Assembly (NCBI GenBank): GCA_965242865.1
Contig: CBDETK010000013.1
Location: 2,624,001-2,688,000 of the forward strand
Source: Candidatus Latescibacterota bacterium
GTDB taxonomy: Bacteria > Latescibacterota > UBA2968 > UBA8231
Length of the DNA stretch: 64,000 bases
Direction of reading: 5' to 3'
The translations under genes and the position numbers were made by a program. The notes beneath the pieces were generated by a model. The model worked only from the letters and a program-made list of their open reading frames with translations, did no database searches and was not told the origin of the DNA. Shown here in pieces: positions 1 through 8,115 of this stretch (position 1 is its first letter; the number at the start of each line of letters is the position of its first letter).

Positions 1-1
1 C

Positions 2-394
2 GGCGCGGTGGCCGGGGACTTTGACGACGATGGCCGCTTAGACCTGTTCGTCACCAACCTCAACGGCCGGCCCTCCCTGCTGCACAACCAGACGACCGCT
101 GACCACCACTGGCTCGGCCTGCGCCTTGTGGGCGCGGGAAAAAACCGCGAGGCCGTTGGTGCGAAGGTCGTATTGTGGAGCGGCGGTCAAAAGCAGCGGC
201 GGGATGTGCTCTGCGGCGAGAGCTTCTTGGGCAGCGGCGACCGGCGCGTGCATTTTGGCTTGGGCGCAACGGGCCGAGCGGATTCGCTGCACATCTATTG
301 GCCGAGCGGGGTGCTGCAACGGCTAATTGACTTGCCGATTGATGAGTATGTGAGGGTTGAGGAGGGAGTTGATGGCGGCGTTGGAGTTTGGTAG
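2..394 (+). CDS. CRTAC1/ASPIC-UnbV family protein, 3' end (5' part outside window)
   Basis: FG-GAP motif GDFDDDGRLDLFVTN, then WLGLRLVG..NREAVGAKV..G.SFLG..RVHFGLG..IYWPSG, typical of the ASPIC/UnbV C-terminus. Confidence 0.9.
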   Translation, partial: GAVAGDFDDDGRLDLFVTNLNGRPSLLHNQTTADHHWLGLRLVGAGKNREAVGAKVVLWSGGQKQRRDVLCGESFLGSGDRRVHFGLGATGRADSLHIYWPSGVLQRLIDLPIDEYVRVEEGVDGGVGVW

Positions 395-522
395 GTTGTC
401 CGTCGATAGCACTGAATGGCGGTATAGTTGAGGATAGTAGGGCCGCTGTTCCGACACACTTTCACTTCGTGTGACCAGATGCCCCGGTTGCTAGTACACA
501 TAAACTATTGGAGATGATTAAG

Positions 523-1917
523 ATGTTCGAGCGTTTGCGAATACAAAACTTTAAGGGGTGGCAGGATACTGGCCGCATTCGCATGGCTCCTATTACTCTT
601 TTCTTTGGTGCCAACAGTTCCGGCAAGTCCAGTATCGGCCAGTTTCTGATGATGCTAAAGCAGACGGTTGAATCACCAGATAGGAAGGCGGTGTTTCACC
701 TTGGTGGGAAAAACACAGCGGTCCAACTCGGCTCCTATCGGGAAATGGTTTTTCGCCGCGATCCAAAAAAGGAAATCTCGTTTGAGTATCAGTGGTCGCT
801 TCCCAACAGCTTAACAATTAAGGATCCTATTTCAGAGCGATCACTTAAAGGAGATGCGTTAGTTTTTGCAGCAGAAGTAGGATTGAGCGACTCAAATTTG
901 CTTGAAGTTAAAAAAACCAAATACCGAGTTTTTAAGGAAGACTATCAGTCGCTGTCCGTTGGGTTAGAAGAAGGCGATAAACGGAATTACGCGGTATCCG
1001 CGGAGGGGTACGATCTCGTCAGAAAAAGAGGACGTGGCTGGCCTCTAAGAGGCCCTGTGCGCTTCTATGGCTTTCCAGACGAGGCGGTTACCTATTACCA
1101 GAACGCTGAGTTTCTTCAGGAACTGAACCTAGAGCAAGAATTGTTGTTCAAATCCATCTACTATCTTGGCCCGCTTAGAACAAGGGCCGATAGACTTTAT
1201 ACATGGACTGGTATCACGCCTGAAAGCGTTGGTTTTGCAGGCGAAAATACCGTAGCAGCCATTCTTGCTGCACGAGACCGTAGAATTAGCTTGGGGCACC
1301 GGAAGCGAACCAAGCGATTAGAGGAGATCGTCTCCTCCAAGTTGGAGAAGATGGGATTGCTCGAGAAATTCAAGGTCGATTCCATCCCTGAGCAAAGGCA
1401 AGAATATGAAGTCAAGGTGCACGCGAAAGGCTCAGCGGATTGGGTAGATCTCCCAGATGTCGGCTTTGGCATTTCGCAGGTACTCCCAGTGCTCGTGCAG
1501 TGTTTTTACGCTCCACCGGGATCAATAATCATCATGGAGCAGCCAGAAATCCACCTTCACCCCAGTGCTCAATCGGCCCTAGCCGATGTGATGATTGATG
1601 TGATCAATTCCAAGGAAAATGGTAGAGACAGAAATATCCAGTTGATCATTGAAACCCACTCCGAGCACTTTTTGCGACGCCTACAAAGGAGAATTGCAGA
1701 AGGTGTCATAGATGAGGCAACAGTGTCGGCTTACTTCGCCGATATTAACAAATTTCCCGCCAAGTTAGAGCCTCTACAAATAGACGAGTACGGCAACATT
1801 CAGAACTGGCCGGAACATTTCTTTGGCGATGAGATGGGGGACATTCTCGCGCAGACTGAGGCAGGCATAAAAAGGAGGATGCAATCACAACAAGACACTC
1901 GTGGATTGGAGAAATAA
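523..1917 (+). CDS. ABC-type (AAA_15/AAA_21) ATPase with DUF3696-like C-terminus
   Basis: N-terminal LRIQNFKG, Walker A GANSSGKS, degenerate signature DVGFGISQVLP, Walker B/D-loop IIIMEQPEIHLHP, H-loop IETHS, C-terminal DEYGNIQNWPEHFF; GGAG RBS before ATG 523; AT-richer than flanks. Confidence 0.9.
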   Translation: MFERLRIQNFKGWQDTGRIRMAPITLFFGANSSGKSSIGQFLMMLKQTVESPDRKAVFHLGGKNTAVQLGSYREMVFRRDPKKEISFEYQWSLPNSLTIKDPISERSLKGDALVFAAEVGLSDSNLLEVKKTKYRVFKEDYQSLSVGLEEGDKRNYAVSAEGYDLVRKRGRGWPLRGPVRFYGFPDEAVTYYQNAEFLQELNLEQELLFKSIYYLGPLRTRADRLYTWTGITPESVGFAGENTVAAILAARDRRISLGHRKRTKRLEEIVSSKLEKMGLLEKFKVDSIPEQRQEYEVKVHAKGSADWVDLPDVGFGISQVLPVLVQCFYAPPGSIIIMEQPEIHLHPSAQSALADVMIDVINSKENGRDRNIQLIIETHSEHFLRRLQRRIAEGVIDEATVSAYFADINKFPAKLEPLQIDEYGNIQNWPEHFFGDEMGDILAQTEAGIKRRMQSQQDTRGLEK

Positions 1918-1919
1918 AA

Positions 1920-2445
1920 ATGAAATTCGTCATAGATACCAATGTCGCCATTGTAGCTAATGGCCGAAAGGACGATCTTCCGTCTGATATTCCAAAGAAT
2001 TGCATTAATGAATCTATCGAGAAAATTAAAAATGTCACAGAAAAAAATTATTGTCTCGTTGTTGATGCTGCTGACGAAATTTTCTATGAATACATAAAGA
2101 GCCCCTACCTTTCTTTGAGAGGTCAGCCCGGTATTGGGGACAAATTTGTCAAATGGGTACATGATCATCAATTTAATCCAAGTAAAGTGGCCCGCGTAGA
2201 AATCACCAAAAGCGGAAGCTCTTACAAAGAATTTCCCGACCACCCTGATTTGCATAACGTTTGATTCTTCTGATCGCAAGTTCGTCGCTGTCGCAAATGC
2301 CCATCCTGAAAAGCCGCCTATTTTACAGGCAACGGATAGCAAGTGGTGGGGATGGAAGGATGCTTTGGCCGAAGTTGGAATTACGGTCTGTTTTCTCTGT
2401 CAAGAATTTGTTGAGAAAAAGTACGCGGATAAGATGGGTGCGTGA
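1920..2445 (+). pseudogene. PIN-domain RNase, split by a +1 frameshift near 2259
   Basis: Starts MKFVIDTNV (PIN first Asp). Frame 0 stops at ..AAC GTT TGA (2264); the +1 frame continues FDSSDRKFVAVANAH..ILQATDSKWWGW..KMGA to TGA 2445, which overlaps the next start (GTGA). Confidence 0.8.
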
Positions 2446-3131
2446 TCGACGCTTTCTTTAAGTTCCCCTCAACGCCACACTTGGCACTCCTCGGCGACGC
2501 CGATGTCAGGAATGATAAGGTCTTGACGGTAGCCGAGCGGAATGAATTTTTGTGCCGTGAGTTGGTCGTCGAAGAAAAAATCGATGGGGCCAATCTCGGC
2601 ATTTCGTTTGATCTCGACGGAAATATTCGCGCCCAAAATCGGGGCGCGTACTTGGAGCTTCCCCGGTCAGGACAATGGAAAAAGCTCTCGGAGTGGTTGA
2701 CGCCGAGAACAGAGACGTTTTTTGAACATCTGTTTGACCGTTACATCCTTTTTGGGGAATGGTGCTATGCTCGGCACACGGTCTTCTACGACCGGCTACC
2801 GGACTGGTTTCTCGGATTCGACGTCTATGATAGGGAAACGGACCGATTTTTATCTTGCGACCGACGCAATGAGCTCTTTCGCTCTATTCGCATTTGTCCC
2901 GTCCCGACCGTCAGACGCGGTTGCTTCACGCTCTCAGAACTGAGCGAACTTCTATTGCAGTCAATGCTCGGCGAGCACCCCGCAGAAGGCATTTATCTCC
3001 GGTCTGATCGCAGTGGCTGGTTGGTTCAGAGGGCCAAGTTGGTTCGTCCCGCCTTTGTTCAGTCAATAGAGCAGCACTGGTCTCGTAAGGACATTGCGCC
3101 CAATCGGTTGAAGTGGGAGGTTCGGACATGA
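2442..3131 (+). CDS. ATP-dependent RNA ligase family protein (Rnl2-like nucleotidyltransferase)
   Basis: Motif I EEKIDGAN, motif III LFGEW, IIIa FLGFDVYD, IV EGIYL, V RAKLV; N-terminal KFPSTPHL. Confidence 0.85.
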   Translation: MIDAFFKFPSTPHLALLGDADVRNDKVLTVAERNEFLCRELVVEEKIDGANLGISFDLDGNIRAQNRGAYLELPRSGQWKKLSEWLTPRTETFFEHLFDRYILFGEWCYARHTVFYDRLPDWFLGFDVYDRETDRFLSCDRRNELFRSIRICPVPTVRRGCFTLSELSELLLQSMLGEHPAEGIYLRSDRSGWLVQRAKLVRPAFVQSIEQHWSRKDIAPNRLKWEVRT

Positions 3132-3171
3132 GTACATCCCTGCTAGCGGCTCAGTGTCTTGCTGGTCACCA

Positions 3172-3409
3172 ACTTTGACGACGATGGCCGCTTAGACCTG
3201 TTCGTCACCAACCTCAACGGCCGGCCCTCCCTGCTGCACAACCAGACGACCGCTACCCACCACTGGCTCGGCCTGCTCCTTGTGGGCGCGGGAAAAAACC
3301 GCGAGGCGGTCGGCGCGAAGGTCGTATTGTGGAGTGGCGGTCAAAGGCAGCGGCGGGATGTGCTCTGCGGCGAGAGCTTCTTGGGCAGCGGCGACCGGCG
3401 CGTGCATTT
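3172..3409 (+). repeat. 238-bp direct-repeat remnant of the ASPIC/UnbV gene (copy of 18-255)
   Basis: Ungapped match to 18-255 at offset 3154, about 8 substitutions by eye; truncated at ..RVH. Confidence 0.95.
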
Positions 3410-3414
3410 AAATA

Positions 3415-3431
3415 ATTTAGGATGGCTATAT
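3415..3431 (-). mobile_element. isolated MITE-like terminus
   Basis: Reverse complement ATATAGCCATCCTAAAT matches 43058-43074 ATATAGCCGTCCTAAAT at 16/17. Confidence 0.55.
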
Positions 3432-3449
3432 CGGTGTGTTAGGCATCGG

Positions 3450-3658
3450 GAAGGTGGTTTTTTATAAACCGTTGCGTCGTCTTTTTTTCTTATATCAAGC
3501 TCGTATGAGCATCAATCACAATTTCGCCTACCTTATAGCCATTTTTATCTTTCAGGGGCACCCGCCAGATACGATAGCGATCATCTACTTCTGGAAGTCC
3601 AAACTGAATCGCATTGTCGAGATCAATATCTTTTAGATAATTCACAGAAACAACAGTC
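3450..3658 (-). pseudogene. AT-rich gene fragment, possibly the N-terminus of a site-specific DNA methyltransferase
   Basis: Minus frame reads NYLKDIDLDNAIQFGLPEVDDRYRIWRVPLKDKNGYKVGEIVIDAHTSLI*EKKTT; no start, in-frame stop; family call is from recollection only. Confidence 0.4.
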
Positions 3659-3681
3659 TAAGGCGTAACGAACGCACGTGC

Positions 3682-5178
3682 CTAGCGGCGATACTGGTCG
3701 AGCGTCCCTCGTCTCGGATCGAAGGTCGTAGCGTGGTTCCACGAGGCGTCGTGCTGGTGCATCACGTCCCGGATTAGGCGACGGCGATAGAGGCTGTCGA
3801 GATTGTCGGCGGCCATTTTATCGGGGTCGAAGTGGTCTAAAATCAGCCCGCGTAAGTGCGTCTCAACTGCGGCGTACTCAGCCTCCCCGGCGAGATTGTT
3901 CCACTCGCCGGGATCGTTCTCCAAATCAAAAAGCTGTGGCTGGTGGCCGTGGATGTAATTGTATTTGAACCGGTCCTCGCGGACCATGATGCAGGGGGCA
4001 CCCACGGCCTCGTGGGCTTGGGCGAAGATGGGGCGTCCCGCTTGCTGGCCCTCAATAATTGGCAGGAGGCTGGTGCCATCGTGGGGCAAGCGCGCCTCGG
4101 CACCGGCTAATTCGCAAAAGGTCGGCAGCAGGTCGAGGAGTGAGGTCGGCGTCTCAATGGTGGCACCGGCCCGCCACTGGTCGGGGAAGCGGACGATGAG
4201 GGGAACTCGGCAGGACCACTCGTAAAAACAGCGTTTCTGCACCATCTCCTTTTCGCACAGCATGTCGCCGTGGTCGGAGGTAAAGACCACAACCGTGTTG
4301 TCGAGCAGGCCCGTTTGCTCCAAAGTCGCCAGCAAACAACCGACCTTGTCGTCGAGGTACGTCACCAAGCCGTAGTACGCGCGGCGCAGGCGGCGCAGAC
4401 TTGCGGGATCGCGCAAGTTGAAGCGGCGGGTGCCGTGGTAGGTATTGAGCCAGCGATCCATCGCCGAGTAGGTCTCGTCGAGGTGAGCCGGGAATTCGGG
4501 GATGGCAATTTCGGCGTCGGCGTAGCGGTCCCAGTGCGCTTGCGGCGGATGGAACGGCTCGTGTGGGTGGTGGAAGGAAGCGCAGAGGAAGAAGGGGGCG
4601 TCGCCGCGTTGAGCGCGGAGGTACTCGACGGAGCGGAAGAGCGTTTCTTCGTCGTAGCTGAGGGCGTCGTGCCAGAAGTTGACGCGCACGGCTTGGCCGG
4701 TGTAGCCACCAGCGTTGTACGTGGGTCGGTTGCCCATGACCTCTTGGTAGTTATCTCCCTTGGTCTCCTTGATGCGGATCCACTCTTCCTTGACCCACGA
4801 AAAGTCGGGCGGGTAGATGTCGGTCGTCAGCCGGCGGTGGAAGCCGTGTAGTTGGTCTGGGCCGACAAAGTGCATCTTGCCCGAAAGCACGGTGTCGTAC
4901 CCAGCGTCGCTGAGGTAGTGGGCGTATGACGGCACATCCGCGGCCAAGAGCGCGCCGTTGTCCCAAGCACCGATCGCGGAGGCGTGGCGTCCGCTGGTGA
5001 TGCAGGCGCGGCCTGGGGCGCACAAGGGGAACGGAGTGTAGGCCGCGTCAAAGCGGACGCCTTCGGCGGCGAGGCGATTCAAGTGCGGCGTCTGGACGAC
5101 CGGGTGGCCGTAGGCTCCGGTCAGAGCGGCGATGAGTTGATCGGACATGATGAAGAGGATGTTGGGGCGGGCGGGCAT
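3682..5178 (-). CDS. Cys-type sulfatase (choline-sulfatase-like)
   Basis: PNILFIMSDQ, CAPGR (CxPxR), GKMHF, TSDHGDML, QLFDLENDPGE. Confidence 0.93.
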   Translation of the reverse strand: MPARPNILFIMSDQLIAALTGAYGHPVVQTPHLNRLAAEGVRFDAAYTPFPLCAPGRACITSGRHASAIGAWDNGALLAADVPSYAHYLSDAGYDTVLSGKMHFVGPDQLHGFHRRLTTDIYPPDFSWVKEEWIRIKETKGDNYQEVMGNRPTYNAGGYTGQAVRVNFWHDALSYDEETLFRSVEYLRAQRGDAPFFLCASFHHPHEPFHPPQAHWDRYADAEIAIPEFPAHLDETYSAMDRWLNTYHGTRRFNLRDPASLRRLRRAYYGLVTYLDDKVGCLLATLEQTGLLDNTVVVFTSDHGDMLCEKEMVQKRCFYEWSCRVPLIVRFPDQWRAGATIETPTSLLDLLPTFCELAGAEARLPHDGTSLLPIIEGQQAGRPIFAQAHEAVGAPCIMVREDRFKYNYIHGHQPQLFDLENDPGEWNNLAGEAEYAAVETHLRGLILDHFDPDKMAADNLDSLYRRRLIRDVMHQHDASWNHATTFDPRRGTLDQYRR

Positions 5179-5182
5179 GGCT

Positions 5183-6166
5183 TTAGCTTTCGGGTGAAAG
5201 GGATTTCTTTACGTAGGCAACCGACTGCTCGAACTGCTCCAGTTCATAAGCAACCCGCACAGCGGCACTCGCGCCGCGCTCGTGCGGCGTCTGCCAATCG
5301 TCGGGATCGTCGGCCGCCTGATGCAGGGTGCGGATGGCATGTATGGCTTCGTCGAGAGGTCGCTCGGGAAAGGTCGCCCACCAGTCCGCTTCCAACAGGC
5401 GAATGTGGCGGGCGACGCTCGCGCCGAGTTCAATGCAGCCCTCGACCTGCGGCACCGCGCGGTTGAATAGCGCGATTATCTCCGGCCAGTTGACGACCCC
5501 GTCGCCGATGGCACAGCGCTTGAGGCGATAGCCCGAGGGCGTGGGGTGGACCGCGTAGTCCTTGAGGTGGACGTGTTTGAGGATGGGCAAGATGCGCTCG
5601 GCAAAGGATCGGGGATGCTCGCCGACGGCAAGGGCATTGCCTACGTCCATGGTGACGCCGAGTTGCGGGCTGCCGACTTTTTCGCACAGCGACAGCAATT
5701 CCCACGAGCACAGATCCTGGTGGTTTTCAATGCCCACTGGAATACCGTATTCCTCGGCAAGTGGCATGACTTCTTTGAAGGGCTGTACCAAGGCTTCGAT
5801 GTAAGCTCGCATCCCCTCGGCGCCATACTCGGTGCGGTTGCCTTCGACGAGGCGGCTGACAGTGGTGCGCACGGCGCGAGCCCCGGTTTGGTGCGCGGTC
5901 TCAATGGCTTGGCGCAGCGGCGCGATGTCTGCGGCGTAGTCGTCGCCGCCGGTGTCCAAAAACAGATTGAGACCCGCACGCGTCTCGGCAAAAACCGCCC
6001 GCTGCTCGGGCGAGCAGTCGCCCAGCCATTGGGCGGCGAATTCGACGCTGTGGAGGCCCGCGTCCTTGGCCAAGCGCGTCAGGCCCTCGGGGGTGTGGGG
6101 GGCCAGGGCGCGACCGGCTTCGCGGTGGGCGCCGGTAAAGCTCCAAGCGCAGAGGCCGATTTTCAT
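5183..6166 (-). CDS. sugar phosphate isomerase/epimerase (AP endonuclease 2 TIM barrel)
   Basis: MKIGLCAWS start (ATGA overlap with hisS-remnant stop), IENHQD, MDVGN, HVHLKD, IGDGVVNW. Confidence 0.88.
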   Translation of the reverse strand: MKIGLCAWSFTGAHREAGRALAPHTPEGLTRLAKDAGLHSVEFAAQWLGDCSPEQRAVFAETRAGLNLFLDTGGDDYAADIAPLRQAIETAHQTGARAVRTTVSRLVEGNRTEYGAEGMRAYIEALVQPFKEVMPLAEEYGIPVGIENHQDLCSWELLSLCEKVGSPQLGVTMDVGNALAVGEHPRSFAERILPILKHVHLKDYAVHPTPSGYRLKRCAIGDGVVNWPEIIALFNRAVPQVEGCIELGASVARHIRLLEADWWATFPERPLDEAIHAIRTLHQAADDPDDWQTPHERGASAAVRVAYELEQFEQSVAYVKKSLSPES

Positions 6167-6361
6167 GCGCGGCTCGTTTCGGTCAACTGGTCGAGAGGGA
6201 CGTTTTGCTCGACGCCGGTGGATAGGGTTTTGATCCGCACCTGACCGGCGGCCCATTCGTCCGGGGCCAGCAAGACCAGCCGAGCGGCCCCGAGCTGGTC
6301 GGCGCGGCGAAAGGCCCAGCGGACTTTTTTGTCTTCGAGGACCAAGTCAACCGAGCGGCCG
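6163..6361 (-). pseudogene. duplicated 3' end of hisS (anticodon-binding domain tail)
   Basis: 5968-6361 matches 8289-8682 (394 bp, about 3 substitutions); encodes GRSVDLVLEDKKVRWAF..TETSRA. Confidence 0.95.
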
Positions 6362-6388
6362 TTATCCACAGACCGCTCGCTACGAGGA

Positions 6389-6985
6389 TTAGTTTTCCAC
6401 GCTTTCAAATAGATCCAAGTGCTCACCTGTGCCAACGAGTCTCCCATGTAAATGCCGAATGTCAATCACTGCCCCAAAGCGAATGAATATCTTTTCAAAG
6501 TGCTCGTACTGCGGCCCCCAATAGATCAGTGCGCAGGACATCGGGGCACCCTTACCGCCATCCTTCCCGTTTACGAGGAAGCGCAGCCGGGTGTCGTAGA
6601 GAAATGCAACCGCAGTAGCAGTGCCAAACACGTATTGTTTCCAGTGGCGAGTATTCGTGGCGACGGGCACTAGAGCGATCACTTCAACACCATGTTGTAC
6701 GTGAGCTTCGGTGCATTTTCGGAGCCAATCTCGAATCGTGGTGCCTCTCTCGCGGTCCCTGCCGTATGGAGGATTGACGAAAACGGTAGGATAATCCCAC
6801 GACGCCGACAACCCGTCAATCTCAGGCAGGGAGTACTCTACAGTCGCCCTCACGATAGAATGGCGATTGGCGCATGGGTCCAACGCGACTGATCCGGCAA
6901 AAAACTCTCGTATCGCGTTAACGTACTTTGGAGGGGTACACCAATGTTGGCTTAGCACTTCGGCATTGTTGCGTCCTGCGGTCAT
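6389..6985 (-). CDS. small DNA N6-adenine methyltransferase (phage Dam-like family)
   Basis: W.TP, ALDPCA (motif I-like), DGL...W, VFVNPPYG (motif IV), ALVPVATNTRHW, RLRF. Confidence 0.88.
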   Translation of the reverse strand: MTAGRNNAEVLSQHWCTPPKYVNAIREFFAGSVALDPCANRHSIVRATVEYSLPEIDGLSASWDYPTVFVNPPYGRDRERGTTIRDWLRKCTEAHVQHGVEVIALVPVATNTRHWKQYVFGTATAVAFLYDTRLRFLVNGKDGGKGAPMSCALIYWGPQYEHFEKIFIRFGAVIDIRHLHGRLVGTGEHLDLFESVEN

Positions 6986-6999
6986 GCCTAGCCGTCCTC

Positions 7000-8115
7000 C
7001 TACCAGTCTTTTGCGGCAAGTTTTCGCAAGTCAGCCTGAAGGTTCTCAATCGTACCGTCACGGGGAGAGATGATGTTAAACCACGTCTCGATCTCAGCTT
7101 CGTGCGCCGTGAAGTAGCTTCGGAGTGCCTCGTCTGCGTCAGTGGCCATGCGCACCTTGGTAAATATATTCGTTCCAGATCCGCGGGGATAACTCGCCAA
7201 GAATGCCTCACGAACAGGTGCCAACTCTGGTGTGGGATTGATCAGCAGCCTGTCAATGAACTGGGACAACCCAGCATCGGTAAGGAACAAAAGCCAGTCG
7301 TATGACTGAGCCAGAACGCGAAGTTCCTTGTTGTGGTTGTCAGAGGTAAACCAGTTACCATGGTTGCTGACGACGCCAACGGAGAGTACGAATCCAGCGA
7401 GTTCGATAATCGACGATGCGTCAATGGCTTCCCGGAGTAGTTCGTCGTATAGGCCGGTTCGAAAGCTACCGTCGGATTGTTCCATGACTCCTTGGAACTG
7501 CCCATTCCTAAGCCGCACTTTTTGCAGGGAAGACACGGACCGTGCAACATAAGCACCCTGTTTTGCCTTTTCAATCGTCTGCGGCCCTTTTCGCATCCCT
7601 TCCTCCACGCCTACGCGCTTGCATTCAAAGATCGCGAACGGATCCCTGGAGAGCAGACATACGATGAGTTTGCAAATAGAACCATTCAATGTATCAACAT
7701 TAGCAATAACTGGACCTGTTTTGCTCTCTATAAGGACAGCTGCGTTGCGCTTCACGGCGTCTTTGCTGAGTACCTGAGTTGATTTGACAGCCATTCCTCG
7801 TAGAAAGGGCAAGTGATGCTTGATCTTTGCGGCCGTGAGAGGAAGGGATAACGAGGCGATCTCGACTTCATGGCGTTCTCTGATGGGGTGAAGTGAGAAC
7901 TCGACGTTGTGCAATATCTCAGGGTTGGCGAACTCAGGCACTGAGCGCTCAATGACGATATGGTCACGAAGATTCCACGTACGGAGAGTGTAAAATGCGA
8001 CGATCTCAACGAGCGTCCCCAACGCACGACCTGCGGCCTTCTTTCGGTCCGCGGCGTAACGGAAGACCGTGTCTGCCAGAGTTCTTTGAAGTGCATCAAC
8101 TGACTCAAAGACCAA
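7000..8115 (-). CDS. putative type II restriction endonuclease (PD-(D/E)XK)
   Basis: GTLVE helix and AIFECKRVG catalytic-type motif; directly upstream of the methyltransferase; AT-richer than flanks. Confidence 0.7.
   Translation of the reverse strand: MVFESVDALQRTLADTVFRYAADRKKAAGRALGTLVEIVAFYTLRTWNLRDHIVIERSVPEFANPEILHNVEFSLHPIRERHEVEIASLSLPLTAAKIKHHLPFLRGMAVKSTQVLSKDAVKRNAAVLIESKTGPVIANVDTLNGSICKLIVCLLSRDPFAIFECKRVGVEEGMRKGPQTIEKAKQGAYVARSVSSLQKVRLRNGQFQGVMEQSDGSFRTGLYDELLREAIDASSIIELAGFVLSVGVVSNHGNWFTSDNHNKELRVLAQSYDWLLFLTDAGLSQFIDRLLINPTPELAPVREAFLASYPRGSGTNIFTKVRMATDADEALRSYFTAHEAEIETWFNIISPRDGTIENLQADLRKLAAKDW

Follow-up and report, generated by a model that had tools for sequence, protein, structure and literature searches.

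Organization of the locus

The stretch of DNA considered here, hereafter the window, comprises 64,000 nucleotides of contig CBDETK010000013.1 (positions 2,624,001 to 2,688,000, forward strand) from the assembly GCA_965242865.1 of a Candidatus Latescibacterota bacterium. Close to its left end lies a cassette of three genes coding for an ABC ATPase, a PIN-domain protein and an RNA ligase, a candidate defence operon that is the subject of this report. A previous reading of the sequence alone, made without database searches, had described three coupled, AT-richer genes, joined by a 2-nt gap and a GTGA overlap and placed between ASPIC repeats; all of these elements were found, and the three protein families had been named correctly, as judged from Pfam and PADLOC matches and, for the PIN protein, from its fold. 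The cassette is composed of the following features:

523 to 1917, plus strand: ABC ATPase gene, intact, 465 aa, AAA_15/AAA_21 with a C-terminal DUF3696 (Pfam, PADLOC)
1920 to 2264, plus strand: PIN gene, N-terminal fragment of 114 codons, ending at TGA 2262-2264 (PADLOC HEC-03A, E 2.7e-23)
2259 to 2262, plus strand: frameshift site in the PIN gene, one extra base relative to intact homologues (family alignment)
2260 to 2445, plus strand: PIN gene, C-terminal fragment of 61 codons in the +1 frame, ending at TGA 2443-2445 (tblastn)
2442 to 3131, plus strand: RNA ligase gene, intact, 229 aa, nucleotidyltransferase domain only (PF09414, E 1.5e-31)

The ATPase reading frame (508/523-1917) is followed, after the 2-nt gap, by the frame at 1920-2264 and then by the ligase frame at 2442-3131, whose GTG start lies inside the GTGA overlap, so that 2442-2445 holds both the PIN stop and the ligase start. 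The cassette (460-3165) has a GC content of 0.479, with values of 0.478 for the ATPase gene, 0.418 for the PIN gene and 0.529 for the ligase gene; the flanking ASPIC pieces stand at 0.637 and 0.651 and the whole window at 0.592. A 238-nt direct repeat brackets the cassette, its copies at 18-255 and 3172-3409 being 97% identical, and both copies correspond to the C-terminal coding part of an ASPIC/UnbV protein (PF07593).

The ATPase and PIN components and their relation to HEC-03

The ATPase is matched in Pfam by AAA_15 (E 5e-25), AAA_21 (1e-22) and DUF3696 (5.5e-8), and in PADLOC by the HEC-03B model (PDLC04148) over profile positions 1-456 of 458 (4.1e-130, 432.9 bits), against 206 bits (2.8e-61) for the NsnB model of the Menshen system. 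Translation likely starts at ATG 523, which is preceded nine bases upstream by GGAG (510-513); the longest open reading frame (ORF) runs from TTG 508, and homologues align from residue 4-6 of that longer frame. The protein carries a Walker A motif, GANSSGKS, and a Walker B region (window 1538-1562) that reads IIIMEQPE. This region has the form hhhEQPExHLH in all 112 ATPases compared, from both clades of the tree described below, where the usual form is hhhDEPE, and it places a Gln where ABC ATPases have the catalytic Glu. A comparable Walker B change (EN) has been described for NsnB in the part of the Menshen paper available. The EQPE sequence suggests that ATP hydrolysis in HEC-03-type ATPases may be slow or absent.

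HEC-03 (Hma-embedded candidate 03) is a two-gene system composed of an ABC ATPase and a PIN protein. According to the available part of the preprint that describes it (Payne et al., bioRxiv 10.1101/2024.01.29.577857; models in PADLOC-DB v2), it lowers phage plaquing in Escherichia coli, both genes being required, and it is toxic upon isopropyl β-D-thiogalactopyranoside (IPTG) induction, for which reason it was kept without IPTG; the word "ligase" is absent from the main text of that preprint. The sequence-only reading had not recognised the triad as an experimentally named system. This has to be amended for the ATPase-PIN pair, which matches HEC-03, and it stands for the ligase, which is an additional part that none of the PADLOC models matched.

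The PIN protein was more difficult to assign. Pfam gave nothing significant for either fragment, and when 39 intact PIN homologues were searched at E <= 1 the PIN models remained below significance, with PF13470 touched by 3 of the 39 (best E 0.11). The N-terminal fragment matches the PADLOC HEC-03A model (PDLC04147) over profile positions 1-104 of 159 (2.7e-23), and intact homologues match it further, that of locus L092 over positions 3-155 (4.9e-29) and that of the congeneric genome G012 at 2.2e-27. The AlphaFold2 (AF2) model of the L092 protein has a mean predicted local distance difference test (pLDDT) value of 95.9; structural comparison with VIA-align placed it closest to VapC21 (Z 9.2, rmsd 3.2, 123 residues aligned), followed by VapC11 (9.0), VapC15 (8.9) and FitB (8.2), 14 of the first 15 rows being PIN proteins, mainly VapC toxins. 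Foldseek returned no match for the same model in the PDB at E <= 0.001. Among the 39 intact homologues D10, D117, D120 and D141 are invariant and E57 nearly so, and because of this the family is assigned, on the modelled structure, to the active type of VapC fold, with nuclease activity as a prediction.

The copy in the window keeps these acidic residues, divided between two reading frames. The N-terminal fragment holds the first Asp (VIDTNV) and the DEIF..EY acidic site, and the C-terminal fragment (FDSSDRKF...MGA) contributes FDSSDRKF and ATDSKWW, with the third and fourth acidic residues. By tblastn the latter fragment is 65-87% identical to homologues that join it to the N-terminal part in one frame; where their consensus reads EFPxHxGLxxFDxSDRKF, the window has EFPDHPDLHN, a Val and a stop codon, and FDSSDRKF continues in the +1 frame. 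The frameshifted sequence was found, with no indel listed, in contigs from two studies (X1/X2 from one, which is a possible source of the assembly itself, and X4 from the other), record 12 of X4 spanning 1986-2273 without a difference from the window; the contigs of a further run, X5, leave 2218-2282 uncovered. Since contigs of two studies carry it, the frameshift is real in the sampled population and no product of a single assembly. Near-identical pieces of the cassette (window 400-3200) were seen in contigs of runs from at least three studies, among them X5, labelled as a sponge metagenome, whose pieces differ at 1-9 positions. In three of four runs (X1, X2 and X5) the stretch 1802-1838 showed far higher depth and loose ends, as if shared with other DNA. 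None of the public runs listed as containing the cassette is an RNA data set.

A +1 ribosomal slip at GUU-UGA could bypass the break, in which case the window copy would make some full-length PIN protein and be functional. The stop codon of the zero frame coincides exactly with the shift (GTT TGA T), and the +1 product would have the length usual in the family; no Shine-Dalgarno-like stimulator is visible upstream, however, and the slip would put a Val where a Phe is invariant. Nor would it be a conserved device, given that the PIN gene is uninterrupted at 116 of 117 non-redundant homologous loci. We regard a functional slip as extremely unlikely.

The RNA ligase and its relatives

The third protein matches PF09414, a family of ATP-dependent RNA ligases, with 110.3 bits (cut-off 27; E 1.5e-31) over residues 39-200. 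It contains the sequences EEK46IDGAN, FGEW, FD, EGIYLR and RAK199LVR, which we take to be motifs I, III, IIIa, IV and V, respectively. Across 50 ligases, the window protein included, the invariant residues are K46, D48, G49 and N51, the stretch F104-W107, F126 and D127, E182, G183 and R187, and R197, K199 and V201. With Foldseek its AF2 model (pLDDT 85.2) retrieved nick-sealing RNA ligases, namely Naegleria NgrRnl (6vt0, E 2.9e-7; 5cot, TMq 0.62), and also Pab1020 (2vug), T4 Rnl2 (2hvr) and REL1 (1xdn); these targets have 320-340 aa and are only partly covered by the model (TMt 0.40-0.44). Compared by sequence with PDB entries, the ligase had a best E of only 0.07.

An exhaustive homologue search, made without a profile, returned 2447 cluster representatives at E <= 0.001, with 308 at <= 1e-30. 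Longer relatives, 35-46% identical, are mostly fusions: in 23 of the 30 scanned, the ligase is joined to a P-loop kinase (AAA_33), a 2H phosphoesterase or a dual-specificity phosphatase, and the fused proteins carry the Pfam "Swiss Army Knife" families. Other relatives, 35-41% identical, stand alone at 21 loci, mainly planctomycete or verrucomicrobial, where a gene for an HD-phosphatase/kinase comes next with a 4-nt overlap. Because its next relatives thus occur in kinase and phosphatase fusions or in repair operons, the ligase belongs, by sequence kinship, to an RNA-repair lineage, and on the same comparison the trio has exchanged the usual end-healing partners of such a ligase for a nuclease.

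The 21 ligase-kinase loci (L195, L216 and L220-L241) pair a 246-aa PF09414 ligase with a 370-aa HD-phosphatase/AAA_33 kinase; at the two loci checked for a third gene this codes for RlaP (L195) or Hen1 (L220), and at L220 a gene for a NIF-type phosphatase lies upstream. Five very long proteins with the ligase domain (P0027, P0042, P0093, P0113 and P0146, 1089-2357 aa) combine it with 2H, phosphatase or kinase domains and with TPR, RWD, MJ1316, AKAP7-like or Patched/sterol-sensing domains. Fusions of PIN with ligase were sought and rejected: the candidates P0016 and P0074 (about 390 aa, with unassigned N-termini) reached probabilities of only 0.15% and 0.26% against a PIN profile, and the other long relatives are the kinase, phosphatase or 2H fusions. 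Co-folding of the PIN protein with the ligase, run without controls, scored 0.00 against a mark of 0.32, which speaks neither for nor against an association.

Conservation of the three-gene unit

Two sets of loci were collected, one anchored on the ATPase (80 loci, of which the 70 with at least 1250 nt downstream are evaluable) and one anchored on the ligase (79 loci, 69 of them evaluable with at least 2000 nt upstream); the sets have contigs in common and cannot be treated as independent. A PIN gene follows the ATPase in 68 of 70 ATPase-anchored loci, a full ligase lies directly downstream in 45 and a ligase remnant in 2. From the other side, ATPase and PIN genes precede the ligase in 63 of 69. 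Conservation of the ligase beside ATPase-PIN homologues, on which the sequence-only reading had staked its proposal, therefore holds in both sets. Of the six exceptions in the ligase-anchored set, L101 has an IS630-type insertion, L154 has PIN and ligase genes with no ATPase found, L139, L142 and L147 have a lone ligase beside housekeeping genes, and L081, described below, has a lone ligase in another setting.

With a third scan included and duplicates removed, all three genes occur together at 126 non-redundant loci from 24 named phyla; 123 are bacterial, one is archaeal (Methanolobus) and two are unplaced. Cultivable carriers include Akkermansia glycaniphila, Desulfobacter vibrioformis DSM 8776, Methanolobus psychrotolerans and Pantoea piersonii. 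Where the three ORFs are complete (80 loci), 4-nt overlaps are present at both junctions in most cases. The pairwise identities of ATPases and ligases correlate (r 0.75, a value reached in none of 999 permutations), and therefore the two genes appear to travel together; the correlation is inflated by relatedness, and a few pairs show exchange of modules. On these comparisons, the genes for ATPase, PIN protein and ligase form a single translationally coupled unit that is inherited as such in many phyla.

The closest ligase, 92% identical, is at L081 (OZ242005.1, Latescibacterota, 1482-5684), which has neither the ATPase nor the PIN gene. The ligase there is preceded by a GHKL-type ATPase-like ORF (230 aa) and by an 879-aa ORF that matches NOV_C weakly (E 0.0042), and the locus adjoins an IS4/5 transposase. 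The GHKL and NOV_C neighbours may represent another nuclease partner or a remnant.

These distributions bear on the proposal that the ligase is an independent repair defence, which mends host tRNA or rRNA cut by foreign ribotoxins and travels as island cargo with no tie to the PIN protein. It would account for the ligase-only loci among the 69 (L081, L139, L142 and L147), for the classical repair operons in which the next ligase relatives are found, and for the fact that loss of either the ligase or the ATPase-PIN pair is tolerated. It does not sit well with the fixed gene order and the stop/start overlap with PIN in most of the 80 complete loci, with the co-inheritance of the three genes, or with the presence of the ligase together with the ATPase-PIN pair between pglXI and brxH, described below; moreover, the end-healing enzymes that a general repair ligase would need are absent from the trio. 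We consider this explanation unlikely.

A branch with a ligase and its repeated loss

A tree of 112 ATPases separates a clade of 10 rows without ligase, on a long branch (SH-aLRT 100), which includes sequences from Massilia, Bordetella, Gallionella, a cyanobacterium and an acidobacterium. The other clade, of 102 rows, has a ligase in 84, a remnant in 2, no ligase in 8 that are scattered over the tree, neither PIN nor ligase in 2, and 6 rows that could not be judged; since 52 of the 112 rows come from ligase-anchored searches this share of ligase is inflated, the unbiased figure being the 45 of 70 given above. Members of the ligase-less clade score 680-796 bits against HEC-03B, versus about 433 for the ligase clade, and identity between the clades is about 40%. 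Given the split in the tree and these scores, the window ATPase falls, by sequence, into a sister branch of HEC-03 proper. The ligase, on the same tree, was present early in the sister branch and was then lost several times.

An alternative third gene was looked for in the ligase-less loci and not supported, the downstream ORFs being unrelated genes with housekeeping or other defence functions (PheT, HisIE, threonine synthase, a TIR-NACHT protein). The last of these, a TIR-NACHT-TPR gene after PIN in an Alteromonadaceae locus of HEC-03 type without ligase (L071, 7080-9872), is a sign of a defence island.

These losses are relevant to a further proposal, in which the ligase is a co-effector that makes the damage done by the PIN protein permanent, through excision and rejoining, circularising, mis-joining or leaving 5'-adenylated ends, and so blocks repair by the phage. 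RloC is known to excise a nucleotide to frustrate repair. The tight coupling of the ligase to a nuclease gene and its strictly conserved catalytic motifs would suit such a role, as would the possibility that a ligase without additional domains needs a complex to work. A gene that is dispensable in the sister system and has been lost repeatedly is, however, more readily understood as an accessory, and the relatives of the ligase are repair enzymes; we judge this proposal to be very unlikely.

Association with BREX and with plasmids

Among the trio loci, 60 have flanks of 3 kb or more to either side. In 13 of these the three genes lie exactly between genes for a pglXI-type methylase and a brxH-type helicase of BREX (bacteriophage exclusion) systems, on the same strand and with gaps that range from a few nucleotides to about 45; one or both of these BREX genes are present in 17 of the 60. 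PADLOC scores on these flanks reach 1468 bits for PglXI, 1560-1589 for BrxH and 1029 for PglZ. Clustering of the flanks of 132 loci showed BREX genes as the only recurrent neighbours, the flank ORFs not having been screened specifically for HNH nucleases. The cassette of the window is itself not placed between pglX and brxH.

The trio is also found on a conjugative Aeromonas plasmid, beside AbiEii and Hok/Gef genes, and on a mobilizable Azotobacter plasmid; RefSeq labels the plasmid-borne genes "DUF3696 domain-containing protein", "hypothetical protein" and "RNA ligase family protein". The ATPase tree is at odds with taxonomy, which fits horizontal spread.

It could be argued from this setting that the cassette is chiefly a selfish addiction module, a toxin with an enzymatic antidote that serves plasmids and islands rather than protection from phages. 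Its carriage by conjugative and mobilizable plasmids, with Hok/Gef and AbiEii as neighbours, its patchy and horizontally moved distribution, and the toxicity of HEC-03 upon induction are in agreement with this. Set against it are the protection from phages by the two-gene relative HEC-03, the embedding of the trio inside BREX, and the persistence of PIN loci without ligase, which would be unexpected if the ligase were the antidote. An addiction module of this kind is, in our estimation, highly unlikely to be the principal function.

History of the copy in the window

The features that flank the cassette are the following:

2 to 394, plus strand: 3' end of an ASPIC/UnbV-type gene, left flank, outside the cassette (PF07593, E 1.4e-18)
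18 to 255, no strand assigned: left copy of the 238-nt direct repeat, 97% identical to 3172-3409
3132 to 3171, plus strand: right end of the cassette, with DNA similarity to the G012 cassette until 3154
3172 to 3409, no strand assigned: right copy of the direct repeat, a truncated 3' fragment of ASPIC, AT-rich from 3410

When 25 genomes of the genus, the source genome (G000) included, were compared by DNA similarity only, two of them, G000 and G012, contained the cassette; three genomes from a different family contain a related one. G012 has an intact trio with 4-nt overlaps (ATPase 601 aa, PIN 179 aa, ligase 224 aa), located downstream of the orthologous ASPIC gene and of two small membrane-protein genes, which match DUF4234 and DUF2752. 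Identity between the proteins of the window and of G012 is 50% for the ATPase, 44% and 77% for the N- and C-terminal halves of PIN and 84% for the ligase, and in blastn window 2260-3154 is 87% identical to the G012 cassette. Window 1-459 (the ASPIC 3' end and the 65 nt downstream of it) is duplicated with 97% identity 2.4 Mb away (G000:C13:182022-182480, L171). Two small ORFs, of 127 and 129 aa, come after that distant copy, which is also the arrangement in G012; the copy in the window joins the cassette instead. Considering the patchy occurrence of the cassette, the duplicated ASPIC 3' end, the comparison with G012 and the broken PIN gene, the locus is read from its sequence as a rearranged, horizontally acquired island in decay.

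Relative to the window protein, the G012 ATPase (L169, G012:C1:5554500-5563500, 2951-4756) is extended at its N-terminus and has an insertion of about 65 residues between positions 414 and 418; three other Latescibacterota loci (L115, L125 and L134) show the same alignment break. To the right of the cassette, at window 3682-6256 on the minus strand, lie genes for a sulfatase (PF00884, 1e-49) and for a xylose-isomerase-like TIM-barrel protein (PF01261, 1.7e-24), both with the GC content usual for the genome. Between these and the cassette there is an AT-rich element (window 3469-3651) with a 51-aa minus-strand ORF (3490-3645) that has no Pfam match; a 95% identical copy of the element is present at G000:C13:3451289-3451471, and copies of 76-84% identity in five related genomes. 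An Rfam scan of window 1-8000 gave no family, and predicted promoters and terminators were no more numerous than in shuffled sequence.

A proposed role for the ligase

The reading that we prefer, and to which we assign about an even chance of being correct, is that the window holds a decaying copy of a widespread three-gene relative of HEC-03 whose ligase mends the RNA breaks made by the PIN protein. By analogy with the models for HEC-03, PARIS, Septu and Menshen, the ATPase would act as sensor or keeper, holding the PIN protein inactive and freeing or activating it on infection. The PIN protein, again by analogy, would be the RNase effector and would cut RNA needed for translation. The ligase would reseal the breaks so made, and the resealing would either limit self-damage from a leaky PIN protein or allow recovery after the threat; it would thus be an accessory that reduces cost and not a core part. 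Resealing is the best supported role for the ligase because of its repair lineage, its strict active site, its coupling to PIN and its dispensability.

Since the trio contains neither a kinase nor a phosphatase, resealing predicts that its PIN protein leaves 3'-OH and 5'-phosphate ends, which the ligase could join directly; this is a prediction and does not count as an argument. It agrees with the mass-spectrometry analysis of VapC cuts by one laboratory, which, in the part available, assumes a 5' phosphate on the 3' product.

Several points weigh against resealing. The ligase has no appended RNA-binding domain of the Rnl2 or Rnl5 kind; Rnl2 carries an appended C-terminal domain and Rnl5 an N-terminal domain of OB type. 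Work based on 5' RNA sequencing states, in the portion accessible, that VapC products carry 5'-OH ends, and VapC expression is described, in an account likewise available in part, as inducing the RtcB repair operon, which responds to cyclic-phosphate ends. Ends of the 5'-OH/cyclic-phosphate type cannot be joined by the trio ligase without a kinase and a phosphatase, and between these published accounts, as far as they are available, the end chemistry of VapC-type cuts is disputed. Resealing by a host ligase would, moreover, cancel the defence if it were neither timed nor outpaced. The sister clade, HEC-03, works without a ligase, and 13 of 53 close relatives of the window ATPase have no full ligase, 11 of these keeping PIN (two with a ligase remnant) and 2 lacking it; because both groups manage without it, the ligase is not an obligate antidote. 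As for the copy in the window, the system probably does nothing, since its PIN gene is broken.

A bolder reading, which we think quite unlikely, is that PIN protein and ligase act as a single machine that cuts and rejoins. Upon infection the PIN protein would take one or a few nucleotides out of a loop in tRNA or rRNA, and sealing of the shortened molecule by the ligase would leave a closed lesion, undetectable and beyond reversal by the RNA-repair enzymes of the phage. In a milder form, the pair would be an on/off switch of translation, with cutting on alarm and resealing on the all-clear, and would then be the first immune system known with both halves of a reversible RNA break.

The customary reading of phage defences based on RNases is abortive infection at the expense of the cell. 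A large branch of a validated ATPase-PIN system, spread over many phyla and bearing a ligase with a strictly conserved active site, offers a direct means of testing whether such defences can be reversible or self-limiting. The ligase is, in addition, a component that current defence finders do not score.

Comparison with known systems

The trio shares features with several systems. Similarly to VapBC, it has a PIN fold with the acidic residues of the VapC type; unlike in VapBC, no gene for a VapB-like antitoxin lies upstream of PIN, the upstream partner being the 465-aa ABC ATPase. In the PrrC and RloC systems an ABC-type ATPase regulates an RNase that stops translation, and the damage is reversed by RNA ligation through T4 Pnkp and Rnl1; the nuclease there is of the HEPN type and the repair is owned by the phage, whereas the trio has a PIN nuclease and its own ligase, and no end-healing enzyme. 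Bacterial RNA-repair operons and the "Swiss Army Knife" fusions have a ligase of the same PF09414 lineage, at 35-46% identity, but combine it with a kinase, phosphatase or methylase and with no nuclease, which is the reverse of the arrangement in the trio.

Menshen (NsnABC) resembles the trio in its ATPase, since the window protein matches NsnB and has the same ABC plus DUF3696 build, and in the Menshen models, as presented in the available part of the paper, a pair of DUF3696 domains grips the PIN-like domain of the effector. According to the same part, the PIN-like domain of NsnC is catalytically dead and fused to another nuclease, in contrast to the trio PIN, which keeps its acidic residues, and the system has no ligase. 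Menshen includes an NsnA (ParB/DUF262) sensor gene, which is absent here, the neighbours in the window being ASPIC fragments, the sulfatase gene and the TIM-barrel gene.

The nearest system is HEC-03, with the same succession of a DUF3696 ABC ATPase and a VapC-like PIN protein, a full-length model match and EQPE in both clades. Both are embedded in other defence systems, HEC-03 in Hma and the trio in BREX and on plasmids; they differ in that HEC-03 has two genes, and here a third, coupled gene, the ligase, is present in 45 of the 70 evaluable loci.

A search of full-text literature found no experimental work on, or name for, the ATPase-PIN-ligase trio, which may be described in Burroughs & Aravind 2016 (NAR 44:8525) and in Krishnan et al. 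2020 (NAR 48:10045). The sequence-only reading had allowed for an earlier computational description, and one exists, known to us at second hand. Matelska 2017 (PMC5499597), in the part available, reports that some PIN_3/COG1569 proteins share an operon with three others, namely an ATP-grasp ligase, an ATPase and an HNH nuclease, and credits Burroughs & Aravind 2016 with proposing a conflict system in which an RNA ligase neutralises nucleases. As conveyed there, that system has in common with the trio a PIN protein, an RNA ligase and an ATPase, and the idea of a ligase that neutralises nucleases; its description further includes an HNH nuclease and assigns the PIN protein to PIN_3/COG1569. Around the trio no HNH gene recurred in the flank clusters, where no search aimed at HNH was made, and few of the PIN homologues touched PF13470. 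Taken together, these comparisons place the trio as a ligase-bearing, BREX-embedded branch of HEC-03, the concept of which, as far as this second-hand account shows, was foreshadowed computationally in 2016.

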